This document shows, piece after piece, positions 19,503 to 39,388 of a DNA stretch of 59,819 nt. The notes below the pieces were generated by a model. The model saw nothing but the letters and a program-made list of their open reading frames with translations, made no database searches and was not told the origin of the DNA. The stretch is from a virus (lineage: Duplodnaviria; Caudoviricetes): the IMG/VR virus record IMGVR_UViG_3300044580_000450, positions 1 to 59,819 of that record. One strand, given 5' to 3'. The position numbers and the translations under genes were made by a program. The stretch's first letter is position 1. Each line of letters begins with the position of its first letter.

Positions 19503-20069
19503 CTAAGCATAATTACTTTTAATATATGATTTTCTCCAATCCAATAATCCTTTTATAGCAAGAATAAGTAAAACTGCATAAAGACCAGCAGACAAATAAA
19601 GTTCCTTAAATATAAAAAGACCAATATAGATAATATCTACTAAGATCCAAATATTCCAGGTTTCAATTTTTCTCTTAGCAAGAAGCCAATTAGCAATAAG
19701 ACTGAATACAGCTACAAAGGAATCTATCCAAGGAGCTGAAGCATCCGTATAAAAATACATTATGAAAGCTATAACTAAATAAGCCCACATTCCTGTCATC
19801 CCCCAGAATATTCTTTGGATAGGAGTCATATATTCAATCTTTGTATGAACTTTATCCTCTCTATATTTTAACCAGTGAAGCATACCAAAAATTCCTTGTC
19901 CAAAGAAAATAAACTGAAGGCCAAAATCTGAATATAACTTGGAATTCCAAAAAACAATAGCATATAAGATTACTCCTATTAAGCCAATAGGCCAAGATAA
20001 AATATGACGTTTAGTGGTTAACCAAACACACAAAAGAGTAAAAAATACCGCTAAAGCTTCTATTATCAT
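19503..20069 (-). CDS. pnuC: PnuC nicotinamide-riboside/vitamin transporter
   Basis: Multi-TM protein; WPIG, LYSD..LQ, DS, ANWLLAKRKIETW..WI.VD. Confidence 0.9.
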   Translation of the reverse strand: MIIEALAVFFTLLCVWLTTKRHILSWPIGLIGVILYAIVFWNSKLYSDFGLQFIFFGQGIFGMLHWLKYREDKVHTKIEYMTPIQRIFWGMTGMWAYLVIAFIMYFYTDASAPWIDSFVAVFSLIANWLLAKRKIETWNIWILVDIIYIGLFIFKELYLSAGLYAVLLILAIKGLLDWRKSYIKSNYA

Positions 20070-21445: not shown

Positions 21446-21855
21446 TTTTTATATTTTTTTCCAGATCCGCAGGGGCAAGGTTCATTCCTTTGGATTTTTG
21501 GTTCAGTTCTTATAGGCTGAATATCTGCTTCCCTTTCTTTGCGAGTAAGGTGAGCATATTTAAGATCCTCTAAATTCCTAATCATAGGAGATGGCTCAAT
21601 TTTTTTTATCATTTCTTTTGGCTCTGTAGCAAAATCTTTGAGACGATGAGCTAAAGCAACATCCTCGGATATAATAATAACCTCAGGATTTTCCGAAAGG
21701 AATTTTTCTTTTGCTTTAATAACAACTGGATCATCTGCGGGGCCAGCAATAACTACTCTTCGTTTATTTGGATCATAGGTTTCACCGCAAACACTGCAAA
21801 CCATCTCTTCATGAGATGTATAGTCTAAGCATTTTGTACAATAAAGATCTTTCAT
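21427..21855 (-). CDS. SEC-C motif protein
   Basis: [17 protein letters not shown]. Confidence 0.85.
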
Positions 21856-21861
21856 AAATTT

Positions 21862-22068
21862 TTAACCTAAAGGATCTTTTGAATTATGCTCGATAATGGT
21901 ATCTATCATATTAACATTATCCTGAATCTTTGATCGAACATTTTTTACAAAATGAACAAGATCCTGAAAATCCATATCTTCCGGATCATCATAATCATCT
22001 GGCAAATCAGTACAATTTTGTAAATTTCTCGAAATTGTTTCCAGCATTTTTAATTCAATCTTTTCCAT
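21862..22068 (-). CDS. Hypothetical protein
   Basis: ORF. Confidence 0.5.
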   Translation of the reverse strand: MEKIELKMLETISRNLQNCTDLPDDYDDPEDMDFQDLVHFVKNVRSKIQDNVNMIDTIIEHNSKDPLG

Positions 22069-22082
22069 ATTTTATATTTTAA

Positions 22083-22282
22083 AATAACCTGAGCGTAGCC
22101 GCGATTCTGTTTTATTCCATCATTTATCTATGCGCCAACCCGATCATCATAGAGCTGCTTTCCCTCTAGATCTGTTTGGTTTGCACCCTCCGCGGTAGTA
22201 ACGGCTTTCGCCTCCCGCGTCTAGCAGTGGTGTCGCGAACTTCCTCCAGCATTTCTGCCAGCGATGGATCCTCTTAGTTATT
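22083..22282 (-). ncRNA. rnpB: Minimal RNase P RNA (catalytic domain; specificity domain and P18 largely missing)
   Basis: GAGGAAGUUCGCGA and ACAGAAUCGCGGCUA (P4 halves), P1 AAUAAC/GUUAUU, P2 UCCAUC/GAUGGA, UAGAUAAAUG, GGUGCAA and an L15-like GGGUUGG. Confidence 0.85.
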
Positions 22283-22289
22283 AAAGAAT

Positions 22290-22535
22290 TCATACCCAGA
22301 CAGTAGAAGCATCCATCTGTAAAGATCTCCATGCTTCTTTTTCCAAGTCAAAATATTTCAAATTCGTTCCAGTATTTCTGGAGGAATCTTTAGGTTTAAA
22401 TTTATCAGGAATAAGATCTGGGTTCAATGTTCCTACTGCTTCACGAATTGCTCCGTCTGCTTTTTTATAGGAAAAATGAAGAGGCTGATCCCCATATAAA
22501 AATTCCCTAAGCCTATTAATATCAACTATTTCCAT
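22290..22535 (-). CDS. SH3-fold/WYL-like phage protein (DUF2693-like)
   Basis: F.Y.KADG.IREA.GTL and YFDLEK.AWRS. Confidence 0.75.
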   Translation of the reverse strand: MEIVDINRLREFLYGDQPLHFSYKKADGAIREAVGTLNPDLIPDKFKPKDSSRNTGTNLKYFDLEKEAWRSLQMDASTVWV

Positions 22536-22571
22536 AATACTTTTACTTCGTAAATATACAAAAGTTTTCTT

Positions 22572-23312
22572 TTACTCGTACTTATATTTCGGAATAAATG
22601 AAGATAATTTTTCTCTTTCTTTCAAAAAATCCGGAGTTATCAGTTTCCATTTTTCAATTTCAAGTTCCCCAGCTAAAGGATGGTTAAGAATTCCGATCTC
22701 TTTAACAAAAGTTCTTCCTCTCTTAAACCCCTCTGGTAGATCATTCCAATTCTGACCCTTCTGAAAGATCATTTCTTGCTGCTGACTCTGAGATTTACCA
22801 TTAAGTTCCTTATGAGAATAAAGGGACTGAGCTGTCATCGCAATAGAATTTCTGACTGCATCTTTCTGTCTCCAGATAAAATAATTTTCTACTTCAACAG
22901 GATCCGGAATTGTAAATACTCTTGCATCAAAGAAAGCAAGATCTGAATGATTGAAAACATTTATATTATTGAAAAAAGCTGCAGCCATAGCAGCTGAAAC
23001 AGAAACTATTTTTTGAACTTGGCCATCAAACCAAGCATCCGAGGTAATTTTATCAAAATCCGTAAGGAGAATAGAAATTTCGTCGGATTGAACATATCCA
23101 AGTTTTGCTCCCTGAATTTCTTCGCAAAGAAATTGGGTAGTGTCATCCATCATCGTGATAAAGTCCTCATCAAATGGTCTTTTCATTCCTTTTGTAAAAG
23201 TGTGAAAGGCTTTGCCATCAAGACGAATGATAGTATATGTTCTCCGCGGGAGAAACAGTTTTGTTCTTCCCTCGTAGTTTTCTTTCATCCTGTTTCCTAA
23301 ATCATCTTTCAT
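22572..23312 (-). CDS. thg1: tRNA(His) guanylyltransferase, Thg1/TLP family
   Basis: RLDGKAFHTFT, YVQSDEIS, FDAR and WRQ.DA.RNS. Confidence 0.95.
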   Translation of the reverse strand: MKDDLGNRMKENYEGRTKLFLPRRTYTIIRLDGKAFHTFTKGMKRPFDEDFITMMDDTTQFLCEEIQGAKLGYVQSDEISILLTDFDKITSDAWFDGQVQKIVSVSAAMAAAFFNNINVFNHSDLAFFDARVFTIPDPVEVENYFIWRQKDAVRNSIAMTAQSLYSHKELNGKSQSQQQEMIFQKGQNWNDLPEGFKRGRTFVKEIGILNHPLAGELEIEKWKLITPDFLKEREKLSSFIPKYKYE

Positions 23313-28136: not shown

Positions 28137-28210
28137 GTGGGCATACCGGGATTTGAACCCAGATTACGAGGTTATCAGCCGCGCGTCCTAACCAATTAGA
28201 CGATACGCCC
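28137..28210 (-). tRNA. tRNA-Ile(GAT)
   Basis: Cloverleaf; loop CTGATAA. Confidence 0.88.
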
Positions 28211-28214
28211 ATTT

Positions 28215-28288
28215 TGTCGGCATACCAGGACTCGAACCTGAATTACGGGGGTATAAGCCGCGCGTTCTCACCATTGAACTATATGCCG
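28215..28288 (-). tRNA. tRNA-Ile(TAT)
   Basis: Cloverleaf; loop CTTATAC; body similar to the adjacent Ile(GAT). Confidence 0.85.
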
Positions 28289-28291
28289 ATA

Positions 28292-28378
28292 TGCGGAGAG
28301 TGCGGGTAACGATCCCACCCGGGTTTTACCCCGACTCTAGTTTTCCAAACTAGTACCTTACCTCTCGGTCAACTCTCC
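28292..28378 (-). tRNA. tRNA-Ser(GGA)
   Basis: Loop TTGGAAA, long variable arm, atypical T-loop. Confidence 0.8.
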
Positions 28379-28996
28379 AATAATTTTTTCTTTCATGTTT
28401 TGATTATCATCCCAAGGAATTCGTATAATTTTCCATCCCTGCTCTAAAAGAAATTTATCTTTTTGAAAATCTTTTTCCTTTCTTTCTTTATAATTATGTT
28501 GCTTACCATCTATTTCCAAAGCTATTTTATTTGATAAAGCAAAATCGATAAAGTATTTTCCTACCTTAAATTCCTGTTCAAATAATATTCCTTCTTTTTC
28601 TAAAATATCTTTAGTTATTTTTTCAGGTCGTGACATCTTGTTTCGGGATTGCCAACCAATTGTTGTATCTCCTTTTTTATATCTTCTTTTAGCACTATCC
28701 GAAAAAAGTTTAGAAAGTTGTTTTTTACCTATTTCAGAGGATGCTCTTAATTGAGCTGAACATTTTTTACTACAGGTTTTTTGCTTTATTTTCTTCTTTT
28801 TAACCAAAAACTCCTTTCCACACTTTTCGCATTTTTTAGAAATCAAAGGATATTTTTCTTTAATAATCTTTTTTAATGTTTCTGAAATCAAAGAACGTTT
28901 ATTTTTTGTACTAAATCCTTTAGCACATTTATCCGAACAAAATCTGCCAGAACCATAAGTTCCATCATGTTCTTTTTCACAATATTCACATTTCAT
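28358..28996 (-). CDS. DUF559/Vsr-like endonuclease with Cys repeats, inserted in the tRNA cluster
   Basis: GSGRFCS, CSKKC, YFIDF, LEIDGKQH, KD.FL..QGWKIIRI. Confidence 0.85.
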   Translation of the reverse strand: MKCEYCEKEHDGTYGSGRFCSDKCAKGFSTKNKRSLISETLKKIIKEKYPLISKKCEKCGKEFLVKKKKIKQKTCSKKCSAQLRASSEIGKKQLSKLFSDSAKRRYKKGDTTIGWQSRNKMSRPEKITKDILEKEGILFEQEFKVGKYFIDFALSNKIALEIDGKQHNYKERKEKDFQKDKFLLEQGWKIIRIPWDDNQNMKEKIIGELTER

Positions 28997-29050
28997 ATCT
29001 ATTATACTAAATAGACTTTGAAAGTTTCGAATAGAGGACTTTGTCCTTAA

Positions 29051-29123
29051 GAGCTTCTACGCAGCCTCGAACTGCGGACTCCGGTATACCACACCGGTAT
29101 TTTACCGACTGAACTATAGAAGC
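29051..29123 (-). tRNA. tRNA-Thr(GGT)
   Basis: CCGGT-GTGGTAT-ACCGG. Confidence 0.85.
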
Positions 29124-29126
29124 AAT

Positions 29127-29202
29127 TGAGCCTACAATCGGGATCGAACCGACTTCTGCGCATTACGAGTGCGCTATCCTCTGCCTTCTAGACGATGCAG
29201 GC
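29127..29202 (-). tRNA. tRNA-Thr(CGT)
   Basis: GCGCA-CTCGTAA-TGCGC. Confidence 0.85.
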
Positions 29203-29210
29203 TTTTGTGC

Positions 29211-29294
29211 TGGGTGGAAGACGGGATTCGAACCCGCGTGCCCTAAGGCCCTGATCCACAGTCAGGTCGGAAACCACTACCGGTTACAACCACC
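29211..29294 (-). tRNA. tRNA-His(GTG) with encoded G-1 and an extended variable arm
   Basis: CCTGA-CTGTGGA-TCAGG; C73 discriminator. Confidence 0.8.
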
Positions 29295-29297
29295 ATT

Positions 29298-29386
29298 TGC
29301 GGAGGGTGAGGGATTCGAACCCCCGGGGCATTTACACGCCCTTCAGTTTTCAAGACTGACCTGATAGACCACTCTAGCAACCCTCC
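29298..29386 (-). tRNA. tRNA-Ser(TGA)
   Basis: TCAGT-CTTGAAA-ACTGA; long variable arm. Confidence 0.9.
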
Positions 29387-29390
29387 AAGG

Positions 29391-29478
29391 TGCGGAGAGC
29401 AGAGTATTCGAAACTCAAGCATTGTTAACGCTCCCTTCGCTTAGCAGGCGAGGACACCACCTCGGTGCGTTACTCTCC
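29391..29478 (-). tRNA. tRNA-Ser(GCT)
   Basis: Loop CTGCTAA; long variable arm. Confidence 0.8.
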
Positions 29479-29484
29479 AATGGT

Positions 29485-29576
29485 TGCGGAGGCGAAGAGA
29501 TTCGAACTCTTATGGCATTAAAACGCCACTCTCGGTTTTCGAGACCGGGCCATTGCTCTGTTGATGGTACACCTCC
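29485..29576 (-). tRNA. tRNA-Ser(CGA)
   Basis: Loop CTCGAAA; long variable arm. Confidence 0.8.
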
Positions 29577-29587
29577 AAAAATATGTC

Positions 29588-29622
29588 AAAGAAAAAGGGA
29601 AGGCTTTTTAAGGACCTTCCCT
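29588..29622 (-). terminator. Attenuator terminator upstream of the Ser/Thr/Ile/His tRNA operon
   Basis: AGGGAAGGT..GCCTTCCCT hairpin followed by TTTTCTTT. Confidence 0.8.
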
Positions 29623-29653
29623 GAGAATAAAATTGAAATTAAAATTAAGAGAT

Positions 29654-29734
29654 TCAATTTTGAGTCACAAGAAGGCCCGCCTGATCCGAGGATGAGGTAC
29701 TAATACTAATCGTATGTATAGAATGCCTTCTCAT
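29654..29734 (-). CDS. Leader peptide MRRHSIHTISISTSSSDQAGLLVTQN
   Basis: Hand-translated; codons 4-16 are only His, Ser, Ile and Thr. Confidence 0.8.
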   Translation of the reverse strand: MRRHSIHTISISTSSSDQAGLLVTQN

Positions 29735-29791
29735 TTTTTGGTTTTTTATATATATCAACTTATATGCAAGAAAAATACTAAGGTTTTGCAA

Positions 29792-30214
29792 TTATTTGTT
29801 ATTTATTAATTCTTCCCTAACTTCTTCCAGAGAAGACATATCATTTTCCGCCATCTCCTTGAAAAAGTTTCTTCCAGCTATCAAAGAATTTAATCTTCTC
29901 TGAAGACCCTTTGTTCTAAAGAAAGAAAATAAAGAAATGCCAACACATGCGAATCCAAACCACTGCGGAGCTCCGTAAAATATTCCAACGAAAGCCGGAA
30001 CAAAAGCCACCCAAGTCATAAATCTCATTAAAAGCATCCATGAAAAGCTAATATGGATTTTTTCAACGTACATCTGGTCATTCAGCCGGATGAATTTCAA
30101 GGGGCTTTCTATAAGAGCTTCATTAAAAAACTTATCCATTTCTTGACGATTTGAGAAACGGAAATCAGTTGCTTTAAACTTAAGTCCTTCGAATTCCATT
30201 GTTATTGTTGCCAT
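29792..30214 (-). CDS. Membrane protein
   Basis: Two TM helices; promoter box upstream. Confidence 0.6.
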   Translation of the reverse strand: MATITMEFEGLKFKATDFRFSNRQEMDKFFNEALIESPLKFIRLNDQMYVEKIHISFSWMLLMRFMTWVAFVPAFVGIFYGAPQWFGFACVGISLFSFFRTKGLQRRLNSLIAGRNFFKEMAENDMSSLEEVREELINNK

Positions 30215-30294
30215 CTCTTTTAATTTTAATTTCATTGTAAATGTACAAATAATTTCCTTAATACGAAAATATTTATCAGATAAAATCGTTAAAA

Positions 30295-30885
30295 TTAATA
30301 ATTTTTTTCAATATAATCCATTAATTTCTTGATATTTTCGTCTGCTTTAGGACCCATTATACCAAGACAGGACTTAAGAAATGCCAGCCTTCCTTTTTTA
30401 TAACTTGATAATGAAAGATGATTGAATTCCAATCTTATTTTCTTTTCAGTCTCAAAGAATTTTTCATACGATCCAACAAATCCAGCATTGTCCGCATCCC
30501 AAAAAATTTTTAAAAGAGGATCAGCAGGTTTTTTCCTATATTTTGTGCATTCAATCATTTCCCCAATTTTCTTAGCCATAAATGGATCTTCTCCTTTAAA
30601 TGTCTGCATAAACATTTGGAGAGATTTATCCTCGTTATCTCTAAATCCAGGGATATAAACAGCATCATGAAAGAATGCAGCTAGAATAAGAGCTTCTCGA
30701 TGAATAGGTAAAACAAAATTCCTTTTCTTTTCAATATCATATAAAATTTGATGAAGATGGTCTATATTATGATACTTCCTCCTCGGTTCGTTCCATGCTT
30801 CTTCAAGTAAACGAATAGTAAAATTGGATAAGTATTTTTCCAAAATCCCTCTATATTGAATAAAAGGGTTCATTCTATTTTCCAT
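30295..30885 (-). CDS. HD-domain phosphohydrolase
   Basis: R.YHN..H, FHDAVY, NE.KS and DAD. Confidence 0.85.
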   Translation of the reverse strand: MENRMNPFIQYRGILEKYLSNFTIRLLEEAWNEPRRKYHNIDHLHQILYDIEKKRNFVLPIHREALILAAFFHDAVYIPGFRDNEDKSLQMFMQTFKGEDPFMAKKIGEMIECTKYRKKPADPLLKIFWDADNAGFVGSYEKFFETEKKIRLEFNHLSLSSYKKGRLAFLKSCLGIMGPKADENIKKLMDYIEKNY

Positions 30886-31103
30886 TGGTGCTTTCTGTTA
30901 TGCTTCCAAGTTTTGTACATTCTTATTTGATGGCCCCAAATCAACCTTGATTTTCTCCATCCCCTGCGTCCTCTTTTACGCTTCTGATAATAACCATATT
31001 CCTCTGGATATGGATCTTGATCAATGCATCTTAATATATGATACTCTCTACTATTTGTAGTAAAATTGAGTATCTGTGATTGTTTTGGCTTATGTTTTCT
31101 CAT
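30870..31103 (-). CDS. Small basic protein ending WK..RK.QW
   Basis: ORF; paralogue of the upstream ORF. Confidence 0.65.
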   Translation of the reverse strand: MRKHKPKQSQILNFTTNSREYHILRCIDQDPYPEEYGYYQKRKRGRRGWRKSRLIWGHQIRMYKTWKHNRKHQWKIE

Positions 31104-31279
31104 GGCATCCACTGTTTACGTTTTTTACTCTGGTATTTCCAGCAACGTGGTGCATGCCAACCTAATCTATTGCAACCTTTATGGGGGCTGCAAATTGGAC
31201 AATGTAAAAGTCTAAGTTTATCAAGACGAGTATATTTGAATACCCGACGATGAGTAGTGTACTTGTAATTGTTTCTCAT
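31100..31279 (-). CDS. Small basic Cys/His protein, 59 aa (not in the ORF track)
   Basis: Hand-translated: CPICSPHKGCNR..WKYQSKKRKQW; ATGA overlap with the next gene. Confidence 0.7.
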   Translation of the reverse strand: MRNNYKYTTHRRVFKYTRLDKLRLLHCPICSPHKGCNRLGWHAPRCWKYQSKKRKQWMP

Positions 31280-31347
31280 AATGGTCTTTATTTAAGGAAC
31301 TATTTTCCTCAAAGACCATCTAATATTAATTTTTTATTTTTCATATT

Positions 31348-31848
31348 TTAGAATACAACTTTTATTCCTAATACAATAGCCATGGCAATAAAAGCTAAAA
31401 TTTCTATCCACCAAGTTCTATTTTTACATATCGTTTTTCCTTTTATCTTTATAAATCTGGTTAAAACTAATGGTAAAGCAATTGCTGCAAAACCAACTGC
31501 TATTGGCCATAGATCAAAATCCAAAATAGTAGATAATTGACTAAATAAAATCCCAGATAATGCACCAATTATATGAACGGTTTCTGTCATCTTTTCTCGA
31601 TATGCAGCTGCGGCACCGACAAAAGCTATTCCGGCGCCGGCAAAAAACATCAAAGGGGTTGATCCAACTATCATTGCTGGAATTGCATATCCCCAGCACC
31701 ATAGTGTAAATAGAAATTTTTTATTATCCGGTAAAGAATAATAACTATGGGATATGGAAGGCAATACTCCATATTTAGCCCAAATAGCTCCAACATAAGT
31801 AAAAAATACTAGGAGCATTAAAATATAAAATGTCAAAACGTATGTCAT
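31348..31848 (-). CDS. Multi-TM membrane protein
   Basis: Hydrophobic; PSIS.SYY. Confidence 0.7.
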   Translation of the reverse strand: MTYVLTFYILMLLVFFTYVGAIWAKYGVLPSISHSYYSLPDNKKFLFTLWCWGYAIPAMIVGSTPLMFFAGAGIAFVGAAAAYREKMTETVHIIGALSGILFSQLSTILDFDLWPIAVGFAAIALPLVLTRFIKIKGKTICKNRTWWIEILAFIAMAIVLGIKVVF

Positions 31849-31865
31849 AAATGTTTCAGTTATTT

Positions 31866-32375
31866 TTATTCTTCATCTTCAGGTTCATATTCATCTTCAA
31901 ATTCTTCATCATAAGGATCTTCTTCCTCCGATGGAGATGTGTCTACCATTATATCTCCAATAAAGTTCCCATTTCCATCTGCTTCAACTCCACCAGTAAA
32001 TCCATTAATTCGAGGATAAAAATCATTATTAACATCAAATTCGGGATTAAGCTTTTGAACATCAGCAACTGTAATAATAGCTACCATTCCTGCATCCACC
32101 CCGGTACTTCCTTTATGAACACTGTTTCCAGAATGGTTAATTACATCATATTCCCCATCGCCAAATGCTGTGGCAGTATAAAGAATTTTAATGGTTGAAT
32201 CAATATAGATTGTTCCGGCATTAGCTGTTTCAGAACCCTGGTTTCCATTAGGATACCAAAATTTATTAATAATTTCTTGCCATATATCATCTGGGATAAA
32301 ATAGCATGGATCCGTGACAATAATGTCTCCTGAAAAACCTTGATAAGTTTCAGTTGTTACTTCAATCTTTCTCAT
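31866..32375 (-). CDS. Hypothetical protein with acidic tail
   Basis: DPCY, TAFGDGEY and GVDAG motifs. Confidence 0.65.
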   Translation of the reverse strand: MRKIEVTTETYQGFSGDIIVTDPCYFIPDDIWQEIINKFWYPNGNQGSETANAGTIYIDSTIKILYTATAFGDGEYDVINHSGNSVHKGSTGVDAGMVAIITVADVQKLNPEFDVNNDFYPRINGFTGGVEADGNGNFIGDIMVDTSPSEEEDPYDEEFEDEYEPEDEE

Positions 32376-32391
32376 AATAAATCGTTTATTT

Positions 32392-32604
32392 TTATTCTTT
32401 GCCAAAGAAATCATCTTGGCATTTTTGACAGAGGCCAGAGATTCTGGACTCCTTTCTGGAAAGTTCATCGCGAAAATCTTCATCGTTTACAGGCATGCTG
32501 CAGAAAGGGCAAAGACGAAATTCTGCCCGTGAAACTTCTTTTTCAAACCCTAATTGTCTTAGGAGATCTTTTTTCCGGGGATTGTCATAAATTGGTTCTG
32601 ACAT
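32392..32604 (-). CDS. Small zinc-finger phage protein
   Basis: CPFC, FRDELSRKE..ISGLCQKCQD.FF. Confidence 0.7.
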   Translation of the reverse strand: MSEPIYDNPRKKDLLRQLGFEKEVSRAEFRLCPFCSMPVNDEDFRDELSRKESRISGLCQKCQDDFFGKE

Positions 32605-32637
32605 GCTAGCGATGTTTATTTATATATTCGAAAAAAG

Positions 32638-32713
32638 TGCGCCCCCAGAAGGATTCGAACCCTCAACCATCTGATCCGAAGTCAGATGCTCTGTCCAATT
32701 GAGCTATGGAGGC
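32638..32713 (-). tRNA. tRNA-Arg(TCG)
   Basis: TCTGA-CTTCGGA-TCAGA. Confidence 0.92.
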
Positions 32714-32734
32714 ATACCCCTGCCTTACTTAAGG

Positions 32735-32937
32735 GCTTCGGAACCCGGGGATCAGGCTACTGTTAATTCGCATTTACATGTGGTGAAATGTCGCTTGCAA
32801 ACCCCTCGATTAATACGTAATCGAACGGAAAGTTTCGATATGGTCCAAACCTACAACAAACCTCTGCGATTACAAAGTGCAGTGCCGGTTATTCATCCTG
32901 ATAACTCAGATCCCTGATAACGGAGGGAAACCCGAAG
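32735..32937 (-). ncRNA. Unidentified ~200-nt structured RNA between tRNAs
   Basis: End-to-end pairing CTTCGG/CCGAAG and GGGATC/GATCCC; GC-richer than flanks; no credible ORF. Confidence 0.45.
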
Positions 32938-33012
32938 TGAGCGGGAGACGGGGCTCGAACCCGCAACCCTCAGCGTGGAAGGCTGATGCTCTACCAATTG
33001 AGCTACTCCCGC
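32938..33012 (-). tRNA. tRNA-Gly(TCC)
   Basis: TCAGC-CTTCCAC-GCTGA. Confidence 0.92.
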
Positions 33013-33362
33013 TTTTTAATTCTTATATACTTTAACCATGAATAAGTTTTTCTAGTTTTAAGATATTCTAAATTATCATCATTGTCATAAGCCTCTCTTT
33101 CGAAGGATAAAGATCGATACGCTTCAGATCCATTTACAAATATACGAATAATCCACTCAATTAAATACCACAAATAGAAAAAAATTATCAACATTTCTAA
33201 CTGCTGTTTCCAATGAATTTTTTCATGGTTTACAGTTCTTAAGTTAGAAATATATTTATCCTTAATATAAATTCCAAACGGGGCTAAAGTAATTCCAGCT
33301 ATTCCTCCTCCAGTAATAAAATTAAGAAATCCTTTTAATTTACGAACTTTTGGTTTACACAT
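33003..33362 (-). CDS. Hypothetical HExxH protein
   Basis: GITLAPFG, NHEKIH..QQ and FEREAY. Confidence 0.7.
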   Translation of the reverse strand: MCKPKVRKLKGFLNFITGGGIAGITLAPFGIYIKDKYISNLRTVNHEKIHWKQQLEMLIIFFYLWYLIEWIIRIFVNGSEAYRSLSFEREAYDNDDNLEYLKTRKTYSWLKYIRIKKRE

Positions 33363-33525
33363 AACGTTTTTATCTATTTATACAAAATAGATTAAAACAT
33401 TAAGTATTTTATCCGGATTATTAATTTTTTATACCAGGGAAGATCTTCCCATTCTTTTAGAAGCTTTTCGACCTCTTCAGCTTCAATAAGAATATATTTT
33501 TCTTCTTGTTCCATAATGAAAAATT

Positions 33526-33600
33526 TGAGCGGAAAACGGGGTTCGAACCCGCGACCTAAAGCTTGGGAAGCTTTCACTCTACCAACTGAGCTACTTCCGC
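33526..33600 (-). tRNA. tRNA-Gly(CCC)
   Basis: AAAGC-TTCCCAA-GCTTT. Confidence 0.92.
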
Positions 33601-33605
33601 TTATA

Positions 33606-33680
33606 GTGACTCCGTAGGGATTCGAACCCTAAACCTCCTGATCCGTAGTCAGGTGCTCTATCCAATTGAGCTACGGAGCC
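33606..33680 (-). tRNA. tRNA-Arg(ACG)
   Basis: CCTGA-CTACGGA-TCAGG. Confidence 0.93.
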
Positions 33681-33868
33681 TATTCTATTTCTTTTTCTAT
33701 TTCCTTTGCAATCGTTTGTTTTTCACTTCTTTTAAGGGATCTAAACGATCTTTTTATATCTTGCTTAAAACTTTTGCGATGCCGAGAATCCTCAAATCCT
33801 TGTTCCATAACCTCTTTTTTTAATTTTTTGAGGTCCTTTCTTTTCTGATCGTAGTTCTTAGCTTTCAT
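33680..33868 (-). CDS. Small basic protein
   Basis: ORF. Confidence 0.5.
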   Translation of the reverse strand: MKAKNYDQKRKDLKKLKKEVMEQGFEDSRHRKSFKQDIKRSFRSLKRSEKQTIAKEIEKEIE

Positions 33869-33877
33869 TGATTGACA

Positions 33878-34510
33878 TTATTCTATATTATTATTTTCGC
33901 CGTAAAGAGCTCTTACTTTTTGTATCCATTCATTAGTTTTAAGTTTTGTCATAAATACTTTATTATCTATAACTCCCTTAAAAACTAAACCTTCCTCTAA
34001 ACCAAAAGCATTTCTTTTAACAAGATCTATAATGTCCTCAGTTAATATCCCTTTATATATTACTCTGGGAATCCCTAAGTGACCAAACAAATCGATGAAA
34101 TCCCCAGGTTTTAAGAAATCTTTTTTATAGAGAAACATATCAAAAATTACTAAATCATGAGGTTCTTTCCAATCATGTTGTCCTGCAAAAGAATGTTCTC
34201 CAAAAAATTCTCCATAAACAGTTATGGTATCAATACCTCTGAAAATCTTTTCTTCATTGAAAATTTTATCAAGCTTTTCAGCATATTTGTTTTCAAAGAT
34301 CCCAATTGCTTCTTCAAAAGGATTATTAGCATTTTTAATCATCTGAGTTCTTGTCCCAAATTTGCCAAATCCATTAGTAAATCTAGATTTTTTTGAAAGC
34401 TTTTTATTCCACTCAGCACAAAAATTAGATCCATCAAATTTTCTAAATCCATAGACATGCTGTCCGATGTAATCCTCGACATTTTTTTCTATAGAATGAT
34501 AATGCTTCAT
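33878..34510 (-). CDS. RNA ligase-like nucleotidyltransferase (Rnl2-type)
   Basis: KFDGSN, FGTR, YGEFFG, FD, EGLVFK and KLKT. Confidence 0.8.
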   Translation of the reverse strand: MKHYHSIEKNVEDYIGQHVYGFRKFDGSNFCAEWNKKLSKKSRFTNGFGKFGTRTQMIKNANNPFEEAIGIFENKYAEKLDKIFNEEKIFRGIDTITVYGEFFGEHSFAGQHDWKEPHDLVIFDMFLYKKDFLKPGDFIDLFGHLGIPRVIYKGILTEDIIDLVKRNAFGLEEGLVFKGVIDNKVFMTKLKTNEWIQKVRALYGENNNIE

Positions 34511-34857
34511 TTATAATTTATAACTGCTAATGGTTTTCCTTTATCTTTTGCTAAATTTATGGAATGCTGAGTTCCTTTTGATTGACCATCCCAGAATGCA
34601 ATAACTGCGTCAGCTGATTCAATTATCTGAATATTTCTTTTATATCCGGCAGATTTACCAAACTGCTCCCAATCTGGGAGAAAAACAAGAAGCTCAATCC
34701 TATTTTCTCTCGCCCATCTTTCGGCTAAAGAATCCGCTCCGTAAGCTCCCCCAGATATAATAACAGATATTGGTCTCCTGCTATGAATAGTATCCAGTTT
34801 TAGTTTCAATAAATCATAATCATCGAAACCCCTTGAACCAACTACTGCTAATTTCAT
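34507..34857 (-). CDS. DUF2493/YspA-like SLOG protein
   Basis: VVGSR, ISGGA.GADSLA, AG..RN and FWDG.SKGT. Confidence 0.88.
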   Translation of the reverse strand: MKLAVVGSRGFDDYDLLKLKLDTIHSRRPISVIISGGAYGADSLAERWARENRIELLVFLPDWEQFGKSAGYKRNIQIIESADAVIAFWDGQSKGTQHSINLAKDKGKPLAVINYK

Positions 34858-35581
34858 TTGTTTTCTCTATTACGTCCAATATGATAACCATCACAATAAA
34901 TGCACTTATAAACACTGAAATGAACCTTTCGTTTTTTCTCCATTGCTTCAGCAGATTTTAGAGCAGTTTCTTTAGTGTTATACATCACCTTTGGATCCCC
35001 GCTATCCTGCCTGAAATGCGAATTCTTATGAAATAAACCCCATGCATTACCAGTAATGAAGAAATTTCTAAAAGCCCTTTTGAAAGGACCCTGATCCATT
35101 ATTCCTAATATGAGGTTTTTAAGTTTCATTTTATTTGTATAAAGGTTCCGTCTTCCATTCCCTTTCTAATCCATCTCATCAAAGTAATTGCTTTGAATTT
35201 TGGCCAAAGATAAGTTACATTCCACTCTTCATCCATTGAATTTATTTCCAGCTGATATGTCGAATCCTCCACGTCTATTGTATAATAGACTTTTCCTGCA
35301 CATACATACGACAATATAGCTTCTGTATTTGAAACTATTTTTTTAAGTGAATGTTTTATTTTCATCTTTCCAATCTCCAAATTAATATTCTTAACCAATC
35401 TACCTTTCTTAGAGTAATTAAATTATCAAGTTTTATATACCTTTGATATTTTTTAATTTGTTTCTCTGTAAAAGGCCTTTTCCTTTGTACATAAAATTCC
35501 TTAAATAGCTTCCGGTGAAAATAATTATAATGAATAAATCTCCACCAAGCTGTTTTTCTGTATAGAAATTTTATTTTCATT
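34854..35581 (-). CDS. Three small hypothetical ORFs (34854-35129, 35126-35365, 35362-35580)
   Basis: ATGA-overlapped ORFs. Confidence 0.55.
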
Positions 35582-35592
35582 GTATTTTGTTT

Positions 35593-35666
35593 TGTAGCCG
35601 GAACGGGAATCGAACCCATATCTAAGGTTTAGGAAACCCCAATTCTATCCATTGAACTATCTGGCC
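35593..35666 (-). tRNA. tRNA-Arg(CCT)
   Basis: Loop TTCCTAA. Confidence 0.88.
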
Positions 35667-35690
35667 AATTAAAGTGGCCAATCTGGCCAC

Positions 35691-35912
35691 TTACCAAGAT
35701 GTTATTTCATATTCATGATGCTGACCACATTCGGGGCAGGTATAATCGAATCCAATATGTCCATGAGACCCGCAAAGATCGCAAGGAGAATCGGAATGAG
35801 AAAAATTATGCTTGCCGATTTCAATCATAACCTCTTTACCTGTAACAGGGCAGATAACTTTTGCGTAAATGCCTTCTACTTTGTGTTCTACTTTTGCAAC
35901 TTTTTTTGCCAT
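35691..35912 (-). CDS. Small zinc-ribbon protein
   Basis: CPVT, CDLC and CPEC. Confidence 0.6.
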   Translation of the reverse strand: MAKKVAKVEHKVEGIYAKVICPVTGKEVMIEIGKHNFSHSDSPCDLCGSHGHIGFDYTCPECGQHHEYEITSW

Positions 35913-35923
35913 GATATTTTGTT

Positions 35924-36448
35924 TTATGCTACTTTACGGCTTTTTAATTGAAACCAATTCGGATCTGATGGGCGTTCTTTTTTCTTTTTTTCCTTTTTTC
36001 CAGAAAATTCTACCCAAGTCATTCCTTTCATAAAAAGATCGTAAGGGATTGATTTTTTCTTGCAATTACAATCATAACAACTTACTAAATAATTGGAAGT
36101 GTCCAATATATCAATTCCTTCGGATCTGGGAATTTTATGATCAACAGTAACGCAAGGATGTAAATTCTGAGTTTTCTTATTTCTTTCAGGCATTTTGTGA
36201 ATATGTTTTCCACAATAATGACAAACCCAAAATTTATCCCCATTAACCTCTATCCTGTTTTTTCTTAACCAAAGGCGTCGAACTATAAAATAATATCTCC
36301 AATCTGTTTGATATTCTTCAGGATCATCTAAATGTTTATAATAATCTTTTAAAAGAATAGCTGAAGCATAAGAAGGAGTAGAGGGATCTGAGAAAATTTT
36401 ATGAATTTCCTTGGTATTTCTGGATAACTGGAATTTTATTGTTTCCAT
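35924..36448 (-). CDS. HNH endonuclease
   Basis: CHYCG, TVDHKIP, N...SC..CN..K. Confidence 0.85.
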   Translation of the reverse strand: METIKFQLSRNTKEIHKIFSDPSTPSYASAILLKDYYKHLDDPEEYQTDWRYYFIVRRLWLRKNRIEVNGDKFWVCHYCGKHIHKMPERNKKTQNLHPCVTVDHKIPRSEGIDILDTSNYLVSCYDCNCKKKSIPYDLFMKGMTWVEFSGKKEKKKKERPSDPNWFQLKSRKVA

Positions 36449-36450
36449 GA

Positions 36451-36915
36451 TCAGATTTTTTGAGCCTGTAACAATCTATTCCTTAAATCCTGCAATTGTT
36501 TTTCCGTATATTTTTCTGGAATAATAAATTCCTCCGCTTTATGAGATAAGATGGTAACCCCATCTTTTTTAAGAGACCAGGTTAAATACCAATTATGATA
36601 AATGGATTTCTTTTTATCTTTTTTCTTCAAAATAGGAACTAGAAATGTTTCCCCCTTTTCGTCTTTTTGAATTTCCACCCCCGTTATAAAGCATTGGGCT
36701 TCTTGTTTAACAGCAAAACAAGATATTCGGTCATCCCTATATTCTTCAATGCAAAGAGTAACTTCATCTCCAATAGAAAGACCTAATTCTTTTTCAAGAA
36801 TTTGGGATTTTAAGGATTGATAATGATATTCCAGATTTTCTTTATCCCTTTTGAATTTTTCTTCTAAAGATTTGATTTCTTCAGAAATAGATTTAATTTT
36901 ATTCAGAATTTCCAT
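36451..36915 (-). CDS. Hypothetical protein (start moved to MEILNK)
   Basis: Promoter box at 36938-36945 lies inside the track's longer start. Confidence 0.6.
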   Translation of the reverse strand: MEILNKIKSISEEIKSLEEKFKRDKENLEYHYQSLKSQILEKELGLSIGDEVTLCIEEYRDDRISCFAVKQEAQCFITGVEIQKDEKGETFLVPILKKKDKKKSIYHNWYLTWSLKKDGVTILSHKAEEFIIPEKYTEKQLQDLRNRLLQAQKI

Positions 36916-37031
36916 TTCTCTCTTTTTAATTACAGAGTAAATGTACAAATAATTTCCCAAATAAAAAAATTTCCGGAGTTAAAACTTAACCGTTTGAATG
37001 ATTTTCCTTCATTATAAACTTGATTATAATT

Positions 37032-37106
37032 TGTAGCCCCACCGGGAATCGAACCCAGATCTAAGGTTTAGAAGACCTTTGTTACTATCCATTGAACTAT
37101 GAGGCC
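37032..37106 (-). tRNA. tRNA-Arg(TCT)
   Basis: AAGGT-CTTCTAA-ACCTT. Confidence 0.9.
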
Positions 37107-37113
37107 ATGGATT

Positions 37114-37191
37114 TGTGGGAGATGGGGGAGTCGAACCCTCGACCTCTTGCTTGTAAGGCAAGCGCTACTGAACCAACTGAGCTAATCTCCC
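37114..37191 (-). tRNA. tRNA-Val(TAC)
   Basis: CTTGC-CTTACAA-GCAAG. Confidence 0.92.
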
Positions 37192-37322
37192 AATCACGAG
37201 GCCAGGTTTTATTTTCACCTGGAATCTTCTTCTTCAGCTGGGGCATCCGAAGTCGACCGTCATAAACCGGAAAAATTAATTGCCCCAGCAACCAATTCTA
37301 CCTTTTATGATCCACTCTCAAT

Positions 37323-37397
37323 TGAGCGGAAGACGGGGCTCGAACCCGCGGCCTCGACCTTGGCAAGGTCGCGCTCTACCAACTGAGCTACTTCCGC
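37323..37397 (-). tRNA. tRNA-Gly(GCC)
   Basis: CGACC-TTGCCAA-GGTCG. Confidence 0.94.
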
Positions 37398-37400
37398 ATT

Positions 37401-37475
37401 TGTGACCCCGGTGAGACTCGAACTCACGACTCCAACATTAAAAGTGTTGTACTCTACCAACTGAGTTACGAGGTC
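37401..37475 (-). tRNA. tRNA-Lys(TTT)
   Basis: CAACA-CTTTTAA-TGTTG. Confidence 0.92.
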
Positions 37476-37476
37476 T

Positions 37477-37607
37477 TGGTGGCGAGAGCAGGAGTTGAAC
37501 CTACGATCTTCAAGTTATGAGCTTGACGTTTTATCCGATGTATCTCTTCATGTTACTACACCTAAATGAGAAAATTTAAAGAGCATTTTTTTCTAAACTT
37601 TCTCGCC
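37477..37607 (-). tRNA. tRNA-Met(CAT) with a ~55-nt D-loop insertion carrying the repeated RNA module; CCA encoded
   Basis: Acceptor GGCGAGA/TCTCGCC-ACCA; TCAAG-CTCATAA-CTTGA; T-arm intact. Confidence 0.75.
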
Positions 37608-37610
37608 ATT

Positions 37611-37684
37611 TGTAGCGGGAGAGGGATTCGAACCCCCGACCTAAAGGTTATGAGCCTTTCGAGCTGCCTCTGCTCCACCCCGCA
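37611..37684 (-). tRNA. tRNA-Met(CAT), initiator-like 1:72 mismatch
   Basis: TGCGGGGTGGAGCAG start; loop CTCATAA. Confidence 0.85.
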
Positions 37685-37695
37685 ATATTATTATA

Positions 37696-37780
37696 TGTAC
37701 CGTCGGCAGGATTCGAACCTGCGAGACATAAATGCCAAGGGATATGAGCCCTCTCCGATTGTCCACTCTGGCACGACGGT
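37696..37780 (-). tRNA. tRNA with CAT anticodon on a class II (Leu-like) body
   Basis: GAGGG-CTCATAT-CCCTT; long variable arm; A73. Confidence 0.75.
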
Positions 37781-37784
37781 ATTA

Positions 37785-37906
37785 GTAGCGGAAATGGGAG
37801 TCGAACCCAATATCAATAGGTTATGAGCCTATTATGATTCGGTAAACCCGGACAGAAGCATCTATATCTTCCACCCATTGTTACCGCTCCGTTTCACTCT
37901 TCCGCG
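37785..37906 (-). tRNA. tRNA-Met(CAT), initiator-like, with a ~45-nt hairpin in the D-loop
   Basis: ATAGG-CTCATAA-CCTAT; insert CGGTAA..TTACCG. Confidence 0.7.
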
Positions 37907-37910
37907 ATTT

Positions 37911-37986
37911 GTTGCGATAGATGGACTCGAACCATCGACCTCTCCCTTTCGGCGAGAGCGCTCTTTTGCCTCTGAGCTATATCGCA
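37911..37986 (-). tRNA. tRNA-like RNA with an aberrant anticodon loop (GCCGAAAGG), Phe-like or decoy
   Basis: Normal acceptor, D and T arms; no U33. Confidence 0.65.
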
Positions 37987-38045
37987 AACACCATTTTTAT
38001 GTTCGAACTTTATTATGGTGTTAGATCACACCTTCCAGTGTAATT

Positions 38046-38773: not shown

Positions 38774-38775
38774 AT

Positions 38776-39385: not shown

Positions 39386-39388
39386 ATT

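Follow-up and report, generated by a model that had tools for sequence, protein, structure and literature searches.

Comparative evidence for a miniature, phage-encoded RNase P RNA without a specificity domain

Introduction

The comparisons presented here support the identification of an RNase P RNA that is encoded by a phage, measures about 200 nt and retains the catalytic domain, the specificity domain (S-domain) and helix P18 being absent. Its gene lies in a phage genome fragment of 59,819 nucleotides (the whole stretch of DNA that was analysed, hereafter the window), which represents a 15%-complete phage genome that includes a capsid gene of the T4 type. Relatives of the RNA were identified in at least 80 other phage sequences, nearly always inside arrays of tRNA genes. 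Judging from its conserved elements and genomic surroundings, we consider it likely that this is a working, trans-acting ribozyme descended from the bacterial type A RNA, which matures the tRNAs of the phage without reading their elbow and usually in association with the RnpA protein of the host.

RNase P RNA trims the precursors of tRNAs and is one of only two ribozymes that are universal, and to our knowledge its gene has so far been treated as strictly cellular (and organellar). Likewise, we know of no approach to the purpose of the S-domain other than engineered deletions and the archaeal type T RNAs. Searches of the openly accessible main texts of the literature, among them PMC6582537, PMC11143913, 10.64898/2026.09.22.753630, PMC5349666 and PMC7162821, gave no account of an RNase P RNA that is encoded by a phage.

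The gene and its match to the bacterial RNase P model

The gene is located on the minus strand at positions 22,084–22,281 and measures 198 nt from P1 to P1'. It sits in an ORF-free gap (22,069–22,289; 221 nt between ORFs), and the G+C content is 49% exactly over the RNA, as compared to 25–37% in the flanks. The Rfam model for bacterial class A RNase P RNA (RF00010) matches positions 22,080–22,281 on the same strand over model positions 1–367 and is the best-scoring model of the RNase P clan, with 34.7 bits and an E-value of 2.9e-9 that was obtained from a 601-base scan and corresponds to about 3e-7 when rescaled to the whole window. In this alignment, 10, 10 and 17 nt stand in for three segments of the model that comprise 15, 15 and 110 positions, such that the S-domain (P7–P14 with CR-II and CR-III; 140 model positions) is reduced to 37 nt, and the 24 positions of P18 with its GNRA loop correspond to 0 nt, in agreement with the absence of P18 described in an earlier note on this DNA.

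Because the S-domain and P18 are missing, the score falls far below the curated gathering cut-off of 100 bits, as do those of the homologs in Stenotrophomonas phage DLP_6 (54.7 bits, E 1.6e-14) and in family member L014 (52.2 bits). An Rfam scan at the gathering threshold did not report the window RNA, a profile search of the window's own record with RF00010 gave no match at E ≤ 10, and a scan at E ≤ 0.01 did not report RF00010 in family members L002 and L003. Detection of the miniature RNAs by Rfam is indeed erratic, since a narrower rescan of L001 (positions 2900–3260) came back empty although a wider scan had matched RF00010 there. The minimum free energy fold of the single sequence is not below those of shuffled sequences (z = -1.19; 23 of 200 shuffles fold as well), which is uninformative because pseudoknots are outside the folding model. 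The support for the structure is provided by the homologs rather than by thermodynamics.

The low score, together with a 61-aa ORF (22,147–22,332, minus strand) that overlaps the RNA region, could be taken to suggest that the match arose by chance or that the region codes for a protein. The E-value, the rise in G+C content over precisely the RNA and a covariation of the type expected for RNA, including pairs located hundreds of alignment columns apart, all contradict this reading, which the covariation has already refuted.

Anatomy of the RNA

All of the named elements that the earlier note had listed on the minus strand are present, namely the two P4 halves GAGGAAGUUCGCGA and ACAGAAUCGCGGCUA, the GAAA-capped P3, the CACC/GGUG pairing of P5, CGGGUU and UAGAUAAAUG. 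The universal core is recognized in the alignment to RF00010 by CR-I (GAGGAA-AGUC...) and CR-V (ACAGAA...GGCU), which flank P4 with its bulged U. The segment containing J3/4 and the 5' strand of P4, GAGGAAGUUCGCGA (CR-I, 22,233–22,246), includes the bulged U and aligns to GAGGAAAGUCCGG of RF00010, and the segment containing J2/4 and the 3' strand of P4, ACAGAAUCGCGGCU (CR-V, 22,097–22,110), was placed by the RF00010 alignment and by covariation. The helices of the type A catalytic domain, P1, P2, P3, P5, P15, P16 and P17, as well as the P6 pseudoknot, are likewise all supported by covariation in three alignments of homologs, which are referred to as A1 (18 sequences, plain MAFFT), A4 (27 distinct sequences) and A5 (41 distinct sequences).

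The 5' strand of P1 (22,271–22,281) consists of an outer AUAACU and an inner GAG and pairs with 22,084–22,093; the three inner pairs are formed in 84–92% of the cells and all three show compensatory changes (A4, A5), and the outer part is weakly aligned (56.5% paired in A1). The 5' strand of P2, UCCAUC (22,263–22,268), pairs with 22,116–22,121 in 98.1% and 98.3% of the cells, with changes on both sides at 5/6 and 6/6 pairs in A4 and A5, respectively. P3 is a hairpin with a GAAA loop (22,246–22,261) that is of variable length among the homologs, with 92–96% of the cells paired (A4, A5). The 5' strand of P5, CACC (22,229–22,232), pairs with GGUG at 22,184–22,187 in 99.1% and 100% of the cells, and covariation is seen at 3/4 and 4/4 pairs (A4, A5). 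Next to it, the 5' strand of the P6 pseudoknot, CUGC (22,224–22,227), pairs with GCAG in L17 (22,155–22,158).

Only about 41 nt are located between the two strands of P5, close to the 45 nt that had been suggested for the site of the S-domain. They include a remnant of 29 nt (22,191–22,219) with a P7-like CGCGG/CCGCG stem, a conserved and asymmetric internal loop (GA on the 5' side, GUUACUA on the 3' side; conserved pattern GA/GUUNNNA) and a GAAA-capped hairpin of 3 bp. The P7-like stem is 93.3% and the hairpin 97.5% paired, both with covariation (A4), and residues G82, G83, A84, A101 and C102 of the remnant are invariant or nearly so (A1). Some rows of A5 seemed to be without the P7 stem, which was dismissed as an artefact of hidden insert columns. 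A different insert is seen at the P7 site in one family member (L038).

The J5/15 linker, CAAA (22,180–22,183), aligns to the type A GCAA of RF00010, which according to the accessible part of PMC10465520 holds the residue that touches substrate position N-1; A115 and A116 of this linker are invariant (A1). It is followed by the P15-L15-P16-P17 arm (22,135–22,179), in which P15 (CCA/UGG) and an internal loop (AACA/GGGU) precede P16 and P17. The pairing levels are 88.9–100% for P15, 98.1–98.8% for P16 and 75.6–85.2% for P17, and all three covary (A4, A5). In type A RNAs, the GGU of L15 pairs with the 3' end of the tRNA (RCCA). This GGU is present here within CGGGUU, and G157, G158 and T159 do not vary among the sequences of A1, which were collected by a pattern that did not contain the L15 GGU motif.

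Finally, the joining region beside P2 (J15/2, corresponding to J18/2 in type A) contains UAGAUAAAUG (22,121–22,130), which aligns to CuAGAugAAUG of RF00010 and represents the CR-IV motif, AGNNNNAU; it is invariant in A1 save for one position, although the first of the search patterns had already fixed part of the motif. In the window copy, P18 is missing between P15 and CR-IV, whereas 10 of the 18 members of A1 have one or two hairpins at this site, in some relatives capped by a GNRA loop.

Covariation across homologs

The proposed pairs are formed in 89.2% of the cells in A1, as compared to 33–45% in slid controls, and compensatory changes were observed at 42 of the 57 pairs; none of 500 shuffles came up to the observed value. 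The corresponding levels are 94.6% in A4 and 92.7% in A5 (32–46% in slid controls), none of the sequences in A5 having been used in building our covariance model R1. The second search pattern fixed some of the motif columns, and alignments fitted to a covariance model lean towards the helices of the model. P4 and P6 were left unpaired in the structure of that model, and yet P4 is 100% and 99% paired with covariation at 3/8 pairs (A4, A5), and P6 is 93.5% paired with covariation at 4/4 pairs in A4 and 80.6% paired in A5. P4, P5, P7, the adjoining hairpin and P15–P17 were found independently by RNAalifold. The compensatory changes thus support P1–P7, P15–P17 and both pseudoknots, P4 and P6, as a structure that is maintained by selection. 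Covariance model support and covariation in homologs had been set beforehand as the test of the proposal, and both were obtained, with RF00010 aligning end to end and the helices covarying in 27 and 41 distinct homologs.

Distribution in phages

Pattern scans of IMG/VR yielded 24 and then 55 further stretches, in total 79 contigs. R1, which was derived from a trimmed alignment of 12 sequences out of the full set of 18, matches all of these (24/24 and 55/55) with 70–206 bits, the window copy scoring 206 bits at 22,090–22,274. Two members (L018 and L019) are matched as split copies and one (L016) is truncated at the edge of its stretch. The length of the RNA is 178–235 nt across the family. A BLAST search with three members against 50,697 GenBank phage records, which would overlook divergent copies, retrieved solely DLP_6, LR745206 and LR756501/LR756503, such that the GenBank members are Stenotrophomonas phage DLP_6 (KU682439; RNA of about 235 nt at about 105,780–106,015) and three records from huge phages. 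LR745206 and LR756501 are apparently genomes from the study by Al-Shayeb et al. (2020; PMC7162821), the main text of which, as distinct from its supplementary tables, does not contain the terms “RNase P,” “ribonuclease P,” “rnpA” or “ribozyme.”

Among eight pattern hits on genome contigs, four were matched by R1, all on contigs of metagenome-assembled genomes (MAGs). The other four (L030, L033, L034 and L035) gave no convincing match (≤15.2 bits) and were rejected; one of these, L035 from Prevotella veroralis, is the sole isolate genome among the pattern-only hits, and R1 reaches no more than 16.8 bits anywhere in the genome of P. veroralis. A divergent further copy (L096) was noted in the MAG of L031, with 37.9 bits for R1 and P4 halves that are complementary by eye; no Rfam match was obtained for this copy.

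The large deletions relative to type A could also indicate a functionless remnant of a host rnpB gene that was acquired along with the tRNA genes and is now decaying. In line with decay, an insertion of about 480 nt with an HNH ORF splits the gene in the lineage of L018 and L019, and no group I intron was identified there with Rfam at E ≤ 0.1. However, 92–95% of the pairs are maintained through compensatory substitutions among 27 and 41 distinct sequences, which come from many contigs, and the nucleotides of the universal core do not vary. Phages of 47 kb to 735 kb have the reduced architecture in common, and two pseudoknots would not survive neutral decay. We therefore strongly disfavor a decaying remnant.

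Contigs from metatranscriptomes cover the gene in all four libraries examined, which come from four studies; the contigs as such show neither transcription nor the ends of the RNA, and gaps in their coverage or differences in depth likewise say nothing on expression. Runs that shared just a small portion of sequence words were left out of the evidence. One contig of 166 nt is located wholly inside the gene (22,106–22,271) and is without differences. We consider this coverage as weakly in favor of a working RNA. Two contigs of high depth (127 in library X15 and 57 in X18) match just positions 22,170–22,216, with four differences, and the manner in which they continue is by eye suggestive of P16/P17 of a relative.

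tRNA arrays and neighboring genes

The RNA gene is tightly linked to tRNA genes in the family as a whole. At least one tRNA gene was found in the examined stretch at 74 of 87 loci, all but one of the 1023 tRNA genes at the 87 loci are on the same strand as the RNA, and the nearest tRNA gene is within 30 nt at 41 of the 74 loci (median 16.5 nt). In the window, 33 tRNA genes form an array on the minus strand (28,137–39,999; identified by ARAGORN, 29 also by Rfam), and their tRNAs are the presumed substrates. Here, the RNA gene lies 5.9 kb away from the array, between protein genes, and no promoter-like or terminator-like sites were found to flank it in a scan of positions 21,700–22,700.

This isolated position might suggest that the ribozyme mainly cuts targets other than tRNAs, such as polycistronic transcripts of the phage, precursors of tmRNA-like or other non-coding RNAs, or host RNAs. 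Permuted or partial tmRNA-like genes are located near some of the copies, and an enzyme without an S-domain should be less specific for tRNAs. This proposal is difficult to reconcile with the tRNA context that dominates the family and with the retention of C74 in the adjacent tRNA genes, and we regard it as quite unlikely as the main role, even though maturation of tRNAs and cleavage of other targets are not mutually exclusive.

C74 is encoded by 915 of 998 neighboring tRNA genes in the family and the complete CCA by 502. In the window, C74 is encoded by 31 of the 32 tRNA genes that were scored and CCA by only one. The retention of C74 fits with a putative contact of a G in L15 with C74 that would have been kept. 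Since 31 of the 32 genes lack CCA, full pairing of L15 with CCA would need the addition of CCA before 5' cleavage.

The earlier note had also proposed that the loss of the S-domain would suit phage tRNAs with insertions in the D loop, an idea for which we found no support. According to ARAGORN, three of the four over-long tRNAs in the window that do not belong to class II (Met, Asn and Asp) carry their extra bases in the variable arm, and only the tRNA-His has an enlarged D loop.

The gene for a Thg1-like tRNA-His guanylyltransferase (22,572–23,312, minus strand; PF04446, E 3.2e-28; phrog_4717, E 1.3e-83) lies upstream of the RNA, its end being separated from the RNA by 291 nt, similar to the distance of about 300 nt given previously, and the tRNA-His gene in the window has an A at position -1. 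Thg1 is adjacent to the RNA at 3 of the 87 loci. The gene immediately upstream codes for a WYL_2/Sm-like SH3-barrel protein of 81 aa (22,290–22,535, minus strand; PF10902, E 3.5e-17), with its stop codon 9 nt before P1. This protein was considered and rejected as a general cofactor, since it adjoins the RNA at just 5 of the 87 loci.

The protein partner

No gene for RnpA was seen in the window, as had been observed before, but the same does not hold for two related huge phages. Among the 75 records that carry the RNA, two code for RnpA (PF00825; about 50 bits, the cut-off being 22.3), namely LR745206 (635 kb) and an IMG/VR record of 476 kb with a completeness of 97%. Their RnpA proteins show 62% identity to each other, share a KKFKRAVDRNRIKRL stretch and are each encoded beside a ClpP gene. 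The gene is absent from the other 73 records, including 10 of the 11 IMG/VR records that are at least 90% complete, as well as DLP_6 and LR756501. The protein partner is therefore assumed to be that of the host, and we infer that most carriers make use of host RnpA.

Since rnpA is missing from 73 of the 75 carriers, host RnpA is also the obvious ligand for an RNA that does little catalysis itself and instead titrates RnpA or competes with the RNase P of the host, thereby redirecting or throttling the maturation of host tRNAs in the course of infection. The conserved regions of the miniature RNA presumably overlap with the regions that bind RnpA in type A. The S-domain that has been lost is furthermore a contributor to efficient catalysis, according to the accessible part of PMC5839562. 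A decoy would not, however, be expected to retain the elements for substrate positioning and chemistry, including the bulged U, the invariant pairs of P4, the AA of J5/15, the GGU of L15 and P6. The addition of a phage RnpA in two genomes argues for the building of an enzyme rather than the sequestering of a host protein, and a place within tRNA arrays, in the same orientation as the tRNA genes, is expected for a processing factor that is made together with its substrates. We consequently find a role as decoy or regulator unlikely, and continue to favor a ribozyme that matures the phage tRNAs.

Proposed mechanism and significance

The catalytic activity, the protein partner and the substrates of such a ribozyme are here deduced from comparative data, and we envision the following series of events. 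The RNA would be transcribed together with its neighboring genes and fold by means of the P4 and P6 pseudoknots, after which a conserved surface formed by P2, P3, P4 and J18/2 would bind RnpA, in most carriers that of the host and in at least one lineage of huge phages that of the phage. The complex may then cut the 5' leaders off the pre-tRNAs that the phage itself encodes, which would be positioned by the acceptor stem, N-1, contacts between the leader and the protein, and pairing of the L15 GGU with C74 (and with C75 where present). The distance to the elbow formed by the T and D loops would not be measured. In the source phage, tRNA-His with its A at -1 could be cut at the canonical +1 position before Thg1 adds G-1.

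On balance, we lean towards the broader scenario in which these RNAs are active ribozymes and would represent the first virus-encoded RNase P and a widespread family of the smallest bacterial-type RNAs. Reading of the elbow would then be dispensable in vivo, and the huge-phage lineage with its own RnpA would possess a complete viral holoenzyme. Furthermore, the tRNA arrays could mature independently of the supply of host RNase P, for example after host shut-off or under a defense directed against tRNAs, and coupling to Thg1 might provide tRNA-His with G-1 in a eukaryote-like manner.

If true, a ribozyme would join the translation-related functions that are carried by phages, and 5' maturation would be explained in phages with 20–40 tRNA genes, many of which are unusual. 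The family would also represent a natural experiment on the purpose of the S-domain, and it offers a compact and diverse set of RNAs with which the structure and mechanism of the catalytic core, and the way in which it contacts RnpA, could be studied. One carrier of the RNA, Stenotrophomonas phage DLP_6, is in culture, which makes the question directly testable at the bench.

Comparison with known RNase P RNAs

The miniature RNA is like type A RNA (RF00010) in having P1–P6 and P15–P17, the P4 and P6 pseudoknots, CR-I, CR-IV and CR-V, a J5/15 linker corresponding to GCAA, the GGU of L15 and a P2 of 6–8 bp. It differs in the absence of P8–P14, with which CR-II, CR-III and the T-loop motifs for elbow recognition are lost, and in the window copy also of P18. 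It is furthermore only 198 nt long, as compared to 367 consensus positions, and is encoded by phages, inside tRNA arrays. Mycoplasma and organellar RNase P RNAs are natural size reductions of the bacterial type; the bacterial examples among these keep a recognizable S-domain, and the organellar RNAs lose other elements and often the activity of the RNA alone.

Natural RNAs that lack most of the S-domain do exist among the type T RNAs, which as described in the accessible part of PMC3579882 have a P2 of 3 bp, a P15 that is shortened by 1 bp, a contracted P5/P15 linker of 2 nt and an archaeal host with its proteins. The earlier comparison with type T holds as far as function is concerned, but not for the architecture, which is archaeal in type T and bacterial type A in the phage RNA, with a P2 of 6–8 bp, P6, P15–P17 and the GGU of L15. 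This set of type T features was not found, given a P2 with six covarying pairs, a GCAA-like linker, a location in a phage genome and RF00010 as the best model of the clan. The two kinds of RNA thus look like the outcomes of independent, convergent reduction.

A biochemical precedent for the proposed mechanism is provided by the engineered catalytic domain of the E. coli RNase P RNA, which likewise lacks the S-domain and still cleaves pre-tRNA, less efficiently, according to the accessible part of PMC5839562. Unlike the engineered RNA, the phage RNAs are natural, under selection, and have a conserved P7-like stem-loop, the internal loop of which is invariant. Finally, the tRNA arrays and tmRNAs of large phages, as described in the main text of Al-Shayeb et al. 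(2020; PMC7162821), point to a shared trend in which phages carry parts of the machinery for translation and RNA maturation, and the miniature RNase P RNA would be in line with this trend.

The RNA gene in the window

The miniature RNase P RNA lies on the minus strand at 22084-22281, in an intergenic gap of 221 nt bounded by the end of an 81-aa ORF (22290..22535) and the beginning of one of 68 aa (21862..22068), and has a G+C content of 49%, against 25-37% in its surroundings. All of the elements that the earlier note had listed by eye were found there. Rfam at curated thresholds gave 29 matches over the whole window, tRNAs only, and RNase P RNA was not reported. The covariance-model check proposed in the earlier note, carried out as an E-value scan of 601 bases, did return the bacterial class A model RF00010 at 22080..22281 (-), with 34.7 bits (E 2.9e-9), about one third of the curated cut-off of 100 bits. 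The alignment runs from model position 1 to 367 and retains CR-I (GAGGAA-GUUCG), J5/15 (GCAA), the P15-P17 arm with CGGGU, CR-IV (UAGAUAAAUG) and CR-V (ACAGAAUCGCGGCUA). The suspected loss of the specificity domain (S-domain) and of P18 was borne out, with 140 model positions skipped and 37 nt in their place for the former, and all 24 positions skipped for the latter. An RF00010 profile search of the window's own genome record reported no match, and the single-sequence minimum-free-energy fold was not better than those of shuffles. Taken by themselves, these results would make for a suggestive case but would not settle it.

The window stretch was present in 14 DNA runs from 8 studies (share 0.91-0.93; one may be the source of the window), taken from wastewater, digester, biogas and fuel-cell samples, and partly present in 6 RNA runs from 4 studies. 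Contigs covered the RNA gene in four of four RNA libraries, each from a different study, and one contig of 166 nt falls entirely inside the gene with no differences. These are assembled contigs in which DNA carry-over is possible, and they give a weak hint of expression.

Homologues of the RNA

Searches of GenBank phages with blastn gave partial hits to two or three uncultured huge phages (the 735-kb LR756501 and LR756503, which share their match coordinates, and the 635-kb LR745206) and to the cultured Stenotrophomonas phage DLP_6, where the copy occupies an unannotated gap within a tRNA cluster and matches RF00010 with 54.7 bits (E 1.6e-14). Scanning IMG/VR with the CR-IV and CR-V motifs yielded 24 stretches, and a second pattern of CR-I, L15 and P15 motifs yielded 66, of which 55 were new. 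R1, a covariance model of the family built from 12 sequences, matched all 24 stretches of the first set. Two of these are split copies (L018 and L019, 54.7-79.9 bits), one (L016) is truncated at the stretch end, and the others score 110-206 bits. In the second set R1 matched 55 of 55 (70-174 bits). The first pattern also occurred in 8 stretches from 185,579 species genomes; R1 supported four, all short, tRNA-dense MAG contigs, and gave no support to the single isolate genome among the eight. The median match length is 206 nt (range 178-314).

The split copy at L019:8624-9307 (-), identical in sequence in L018, is divided within P16/P17 by an insert of about 480 nt carrying an HNH-type endonuclease ORF, with R1 scores of 79.9 bits for the 5' part and 54.7 bits for the 3' part. 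Rfam detected no group I intron in the interruption at E <= 0.1; the insert may be an intron or a loop insertion that the RNA tolerates, or the gene may be dead. A divergent 231-nt RNase P-like RNA was also observed at L096:1501-1731 (+), on a second contig of the Deltaproteobacteria MAG that also contains L031. It scores 37.9 bits with R1 and its P4 halves are complementary by eye, but it is missed by Rfam and has no tRNA within 3.2 kb. To go by this copy, the family probably reaches past the two search patterns.

Secondary structure and covariation

The structure derived from the window copy comprises P1, P2, P3, P5, a P7-like stem with an apical hairpin, P15, P16 and P17, together with two pseudoknots, P4 and P6. 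When 18 members were aligned with plain MAFFT, 89.2% of the cells were paired; sliding the partners by 1-3 columns lowered this to 33-45%. Both-sided changes occur in 42 of 57 pairs, and the observed values were reached by none of 500 shuffles, a test that is inflated by the relatedness of the sequences. RNAalifold independently recovered P4, P5, P7, the hairpin and P15-P17 from the same alignment. Model-guided alignments are 94.6% paired for 27 distinct sequences and 92.7% for 41 distinct sequences outside model building, figures that are biased to the modelled helices and include some motif columns fixed by the search patterns.

P4 and P6 are unpaired in R1, so that their columns were not fitted to any helix. 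P4 is nevertheless paired at 100% and 99% in the 27 and 41 sequences, with three covarying pairs and variants such as UCGCGA/UCGCGG, UCGGGA/UCCCGG, UCGCCA/UGGCGG and UCGUGA/UCACGG, and P6 at 93.5% and 80.6%, with covariation in each of its four pairs. The caveats about relatedness, alignment and search patterns are answered by the slid-partner controls, by the two pseudoknots left out of the model and by the held-out set, and we therefore conclude that the family is a genuine structured RNA under selection, with a type A catalytic-domain architecture. The covariation that the earlier note had named as a test is present in all three alignments, and it excludes the rival reading of the gene as a decaying remnant.

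The short spacer of about 45 nt that had been noticed at the place of the S-domain measures 41 nt between the P5 strands, and in the window copy consists of the 5' strand of P6, a 5-bp stem, an internal loop and a 3-bp hairpin. The loop is asymmetric, with GA (2 nt) on the 5' side opposite GUUACUA (7 nt) on the 3' side, and no known motif could be assigned to it. Little or no variation is seen in the loop GA, in the closing G-C pairs or in the AC preceding the 3' strand; the hairpin is highly variable in length and loop, and L005, L014, L026 and L028 carry inserts there that reach about 100 nt. At the position of P18, one or two hairpins are found in 10 of the 18 aligned members and none in the window copy.

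Association with tRNA genes

The 33 tRNA genes of the window are all on the strand of the RNA, with an array at 28137-39999 (-). tRNAs occur in the examined stretch at 74 of 87 loci, on the RNA's strand in 1022 of 1023 cases, and the nearest is at most 30 nt away at 41 of these 74; as a rule the RNA forms part of a tRNA array. Among neighbouring tRNA genes (window plus 73 loci), CCA is encoded in 502 of 998 and C74 kept in 915 of 998, and in the window CCA is found in 1 of 32 and C74 in 31 of 32, CAA being the commonest trailer. C74 is kept even in lineages without encoded CCA, which fits the conserved GGU of L15.

Several tRNAs are unusual by ARAGORN fold. The window tRNA-Met (37697-37780), tRNA-Asn (38687-38773) and tRNA-Asp (39390-39477), all on the minus strand and 84-88 nt long, have long class-II-like variable arms, the 85-nt tRNA-His has an enlarged D loop, and a tRNA whose anticodon has four bases (cgaa) lies at L026:6094-6167 (+), within an array of 28. 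An unannotated permuted tmRNA (RF04321, 136.8 bits; cut-off 47) opens the DLP_6 tRNA cluster at L001:28-249 (+), about 102,838-103,059 of KU682439. Weak tmRNA matches (RF00023, 28.9 bits, under the cut-off of 47) cover the 84 nt immediately 3' of the RNA at L014:2217-2300 (-) and L028:5602-5685 (-).

Neighbouring genes and the probable protein partner

The window comes from a large T4-like phage, of which CheckV estimates it to cover 15%, and has genes for a Gp23-type capsid protein, a prohead protease, a TonB-dependent receptor (47394-49364) and a minus-strand NAD-salvage set: a PnuC transporter (19503-20069), a NadR-like cytidylyltransferase/AAA_28 protein (45433-46458), nicotinate phosphoribosyltransferase (50448-51683) and NAD synthase (55284-56159). 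A DUF559/REase-like ORF (28358-28996) and an HNH ORF (35924-36448), both on the minus strand within the tRNA array, look like homing-endonuclease genes. The gene for Thg1, the tRNA-His guanylyltransferase, had been placed about 300 nt from the RNA and lies 291 nt upstream (22572-23312, -). The tRNA-His gene (29212-29296, -) has A at -1, so G-1 has to be added after cleavage, and the presence of a phage Thg1 together with this A implies that this occurs in the eukaryote-like way.

A WYL_2/Sm-like SH3-barrel protein (PF10902) of 81-86 aa, encoded at 22290-22535 (-) in the window and also in L006, L007, L009 and L032, has a gene that ends 4-19 nt before the RNA at 5 of 87 loci. Since the adjacency is limited to these loci, we rejected it as a general partner; it may reflect lineage synteny or a lineage-specific RNA-binding partner.

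RnpA (PF00825), which the earlier note had not seen, is absent from the 15%-complete window fragment and was not found in 73 of 75 carrier records; the RnpA-less carriers include DLP_6 and 10 of the 11 IMG/VR records with a completeness of 90% or more. The two exceptions, LR745206 and a 476-kb IMG/VR record (97% complete), have closely related miniature RNase P RNAs. Their RnpA homologues, at L036:1465-1812 (+; LR745206 76,4xx) and L037:1498-1797 (-), score about 50 bits (cut-off 22.3), are 62% identical to each other and each adjoin a ClpP gene.

The best-supported reading is that the window RNA is a functional RNase P RNA cut down to its catalytic domain. It would mature phage tRNAs with RnpA, usually that of the host, and would choose the cleavage site from the acceptor end and not the elbow. 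The rivals to this reading are that the RNA binds RnpA as a decoy, or that it is a ribozyme retargeted to other substrates.

Comparison with known RNase P RNAs

Rfam 15 holds no family capturing these phage RNAs. RNase P goes unmentioned in the DLP_6 paper and in the main text of the huge-phage paper (PMC7162821). A full-text search covering the main texts of openly accessible papers gave no account of a phage-encoded RNase P RNA, and an earlier description may exist elsewhere. Two precedents for a reduced RNA of this kind are catalytic-domain-only constructs of the E. coli RNA, reported to cleave with lower efficiency (PMC5839562), and the archaeal type T RNAs (PMC3579882). The phage RNA does not belong to type T, as its P2 length, P6, P16/P17 and L15 are all bacterial. 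Compared with RF00010, it lacks the S-domain and falls short of the curated score, both of them features that define the family. For this reason we class it as a new structural form within bacterial RNase P RNA and not as a plain member of the class.
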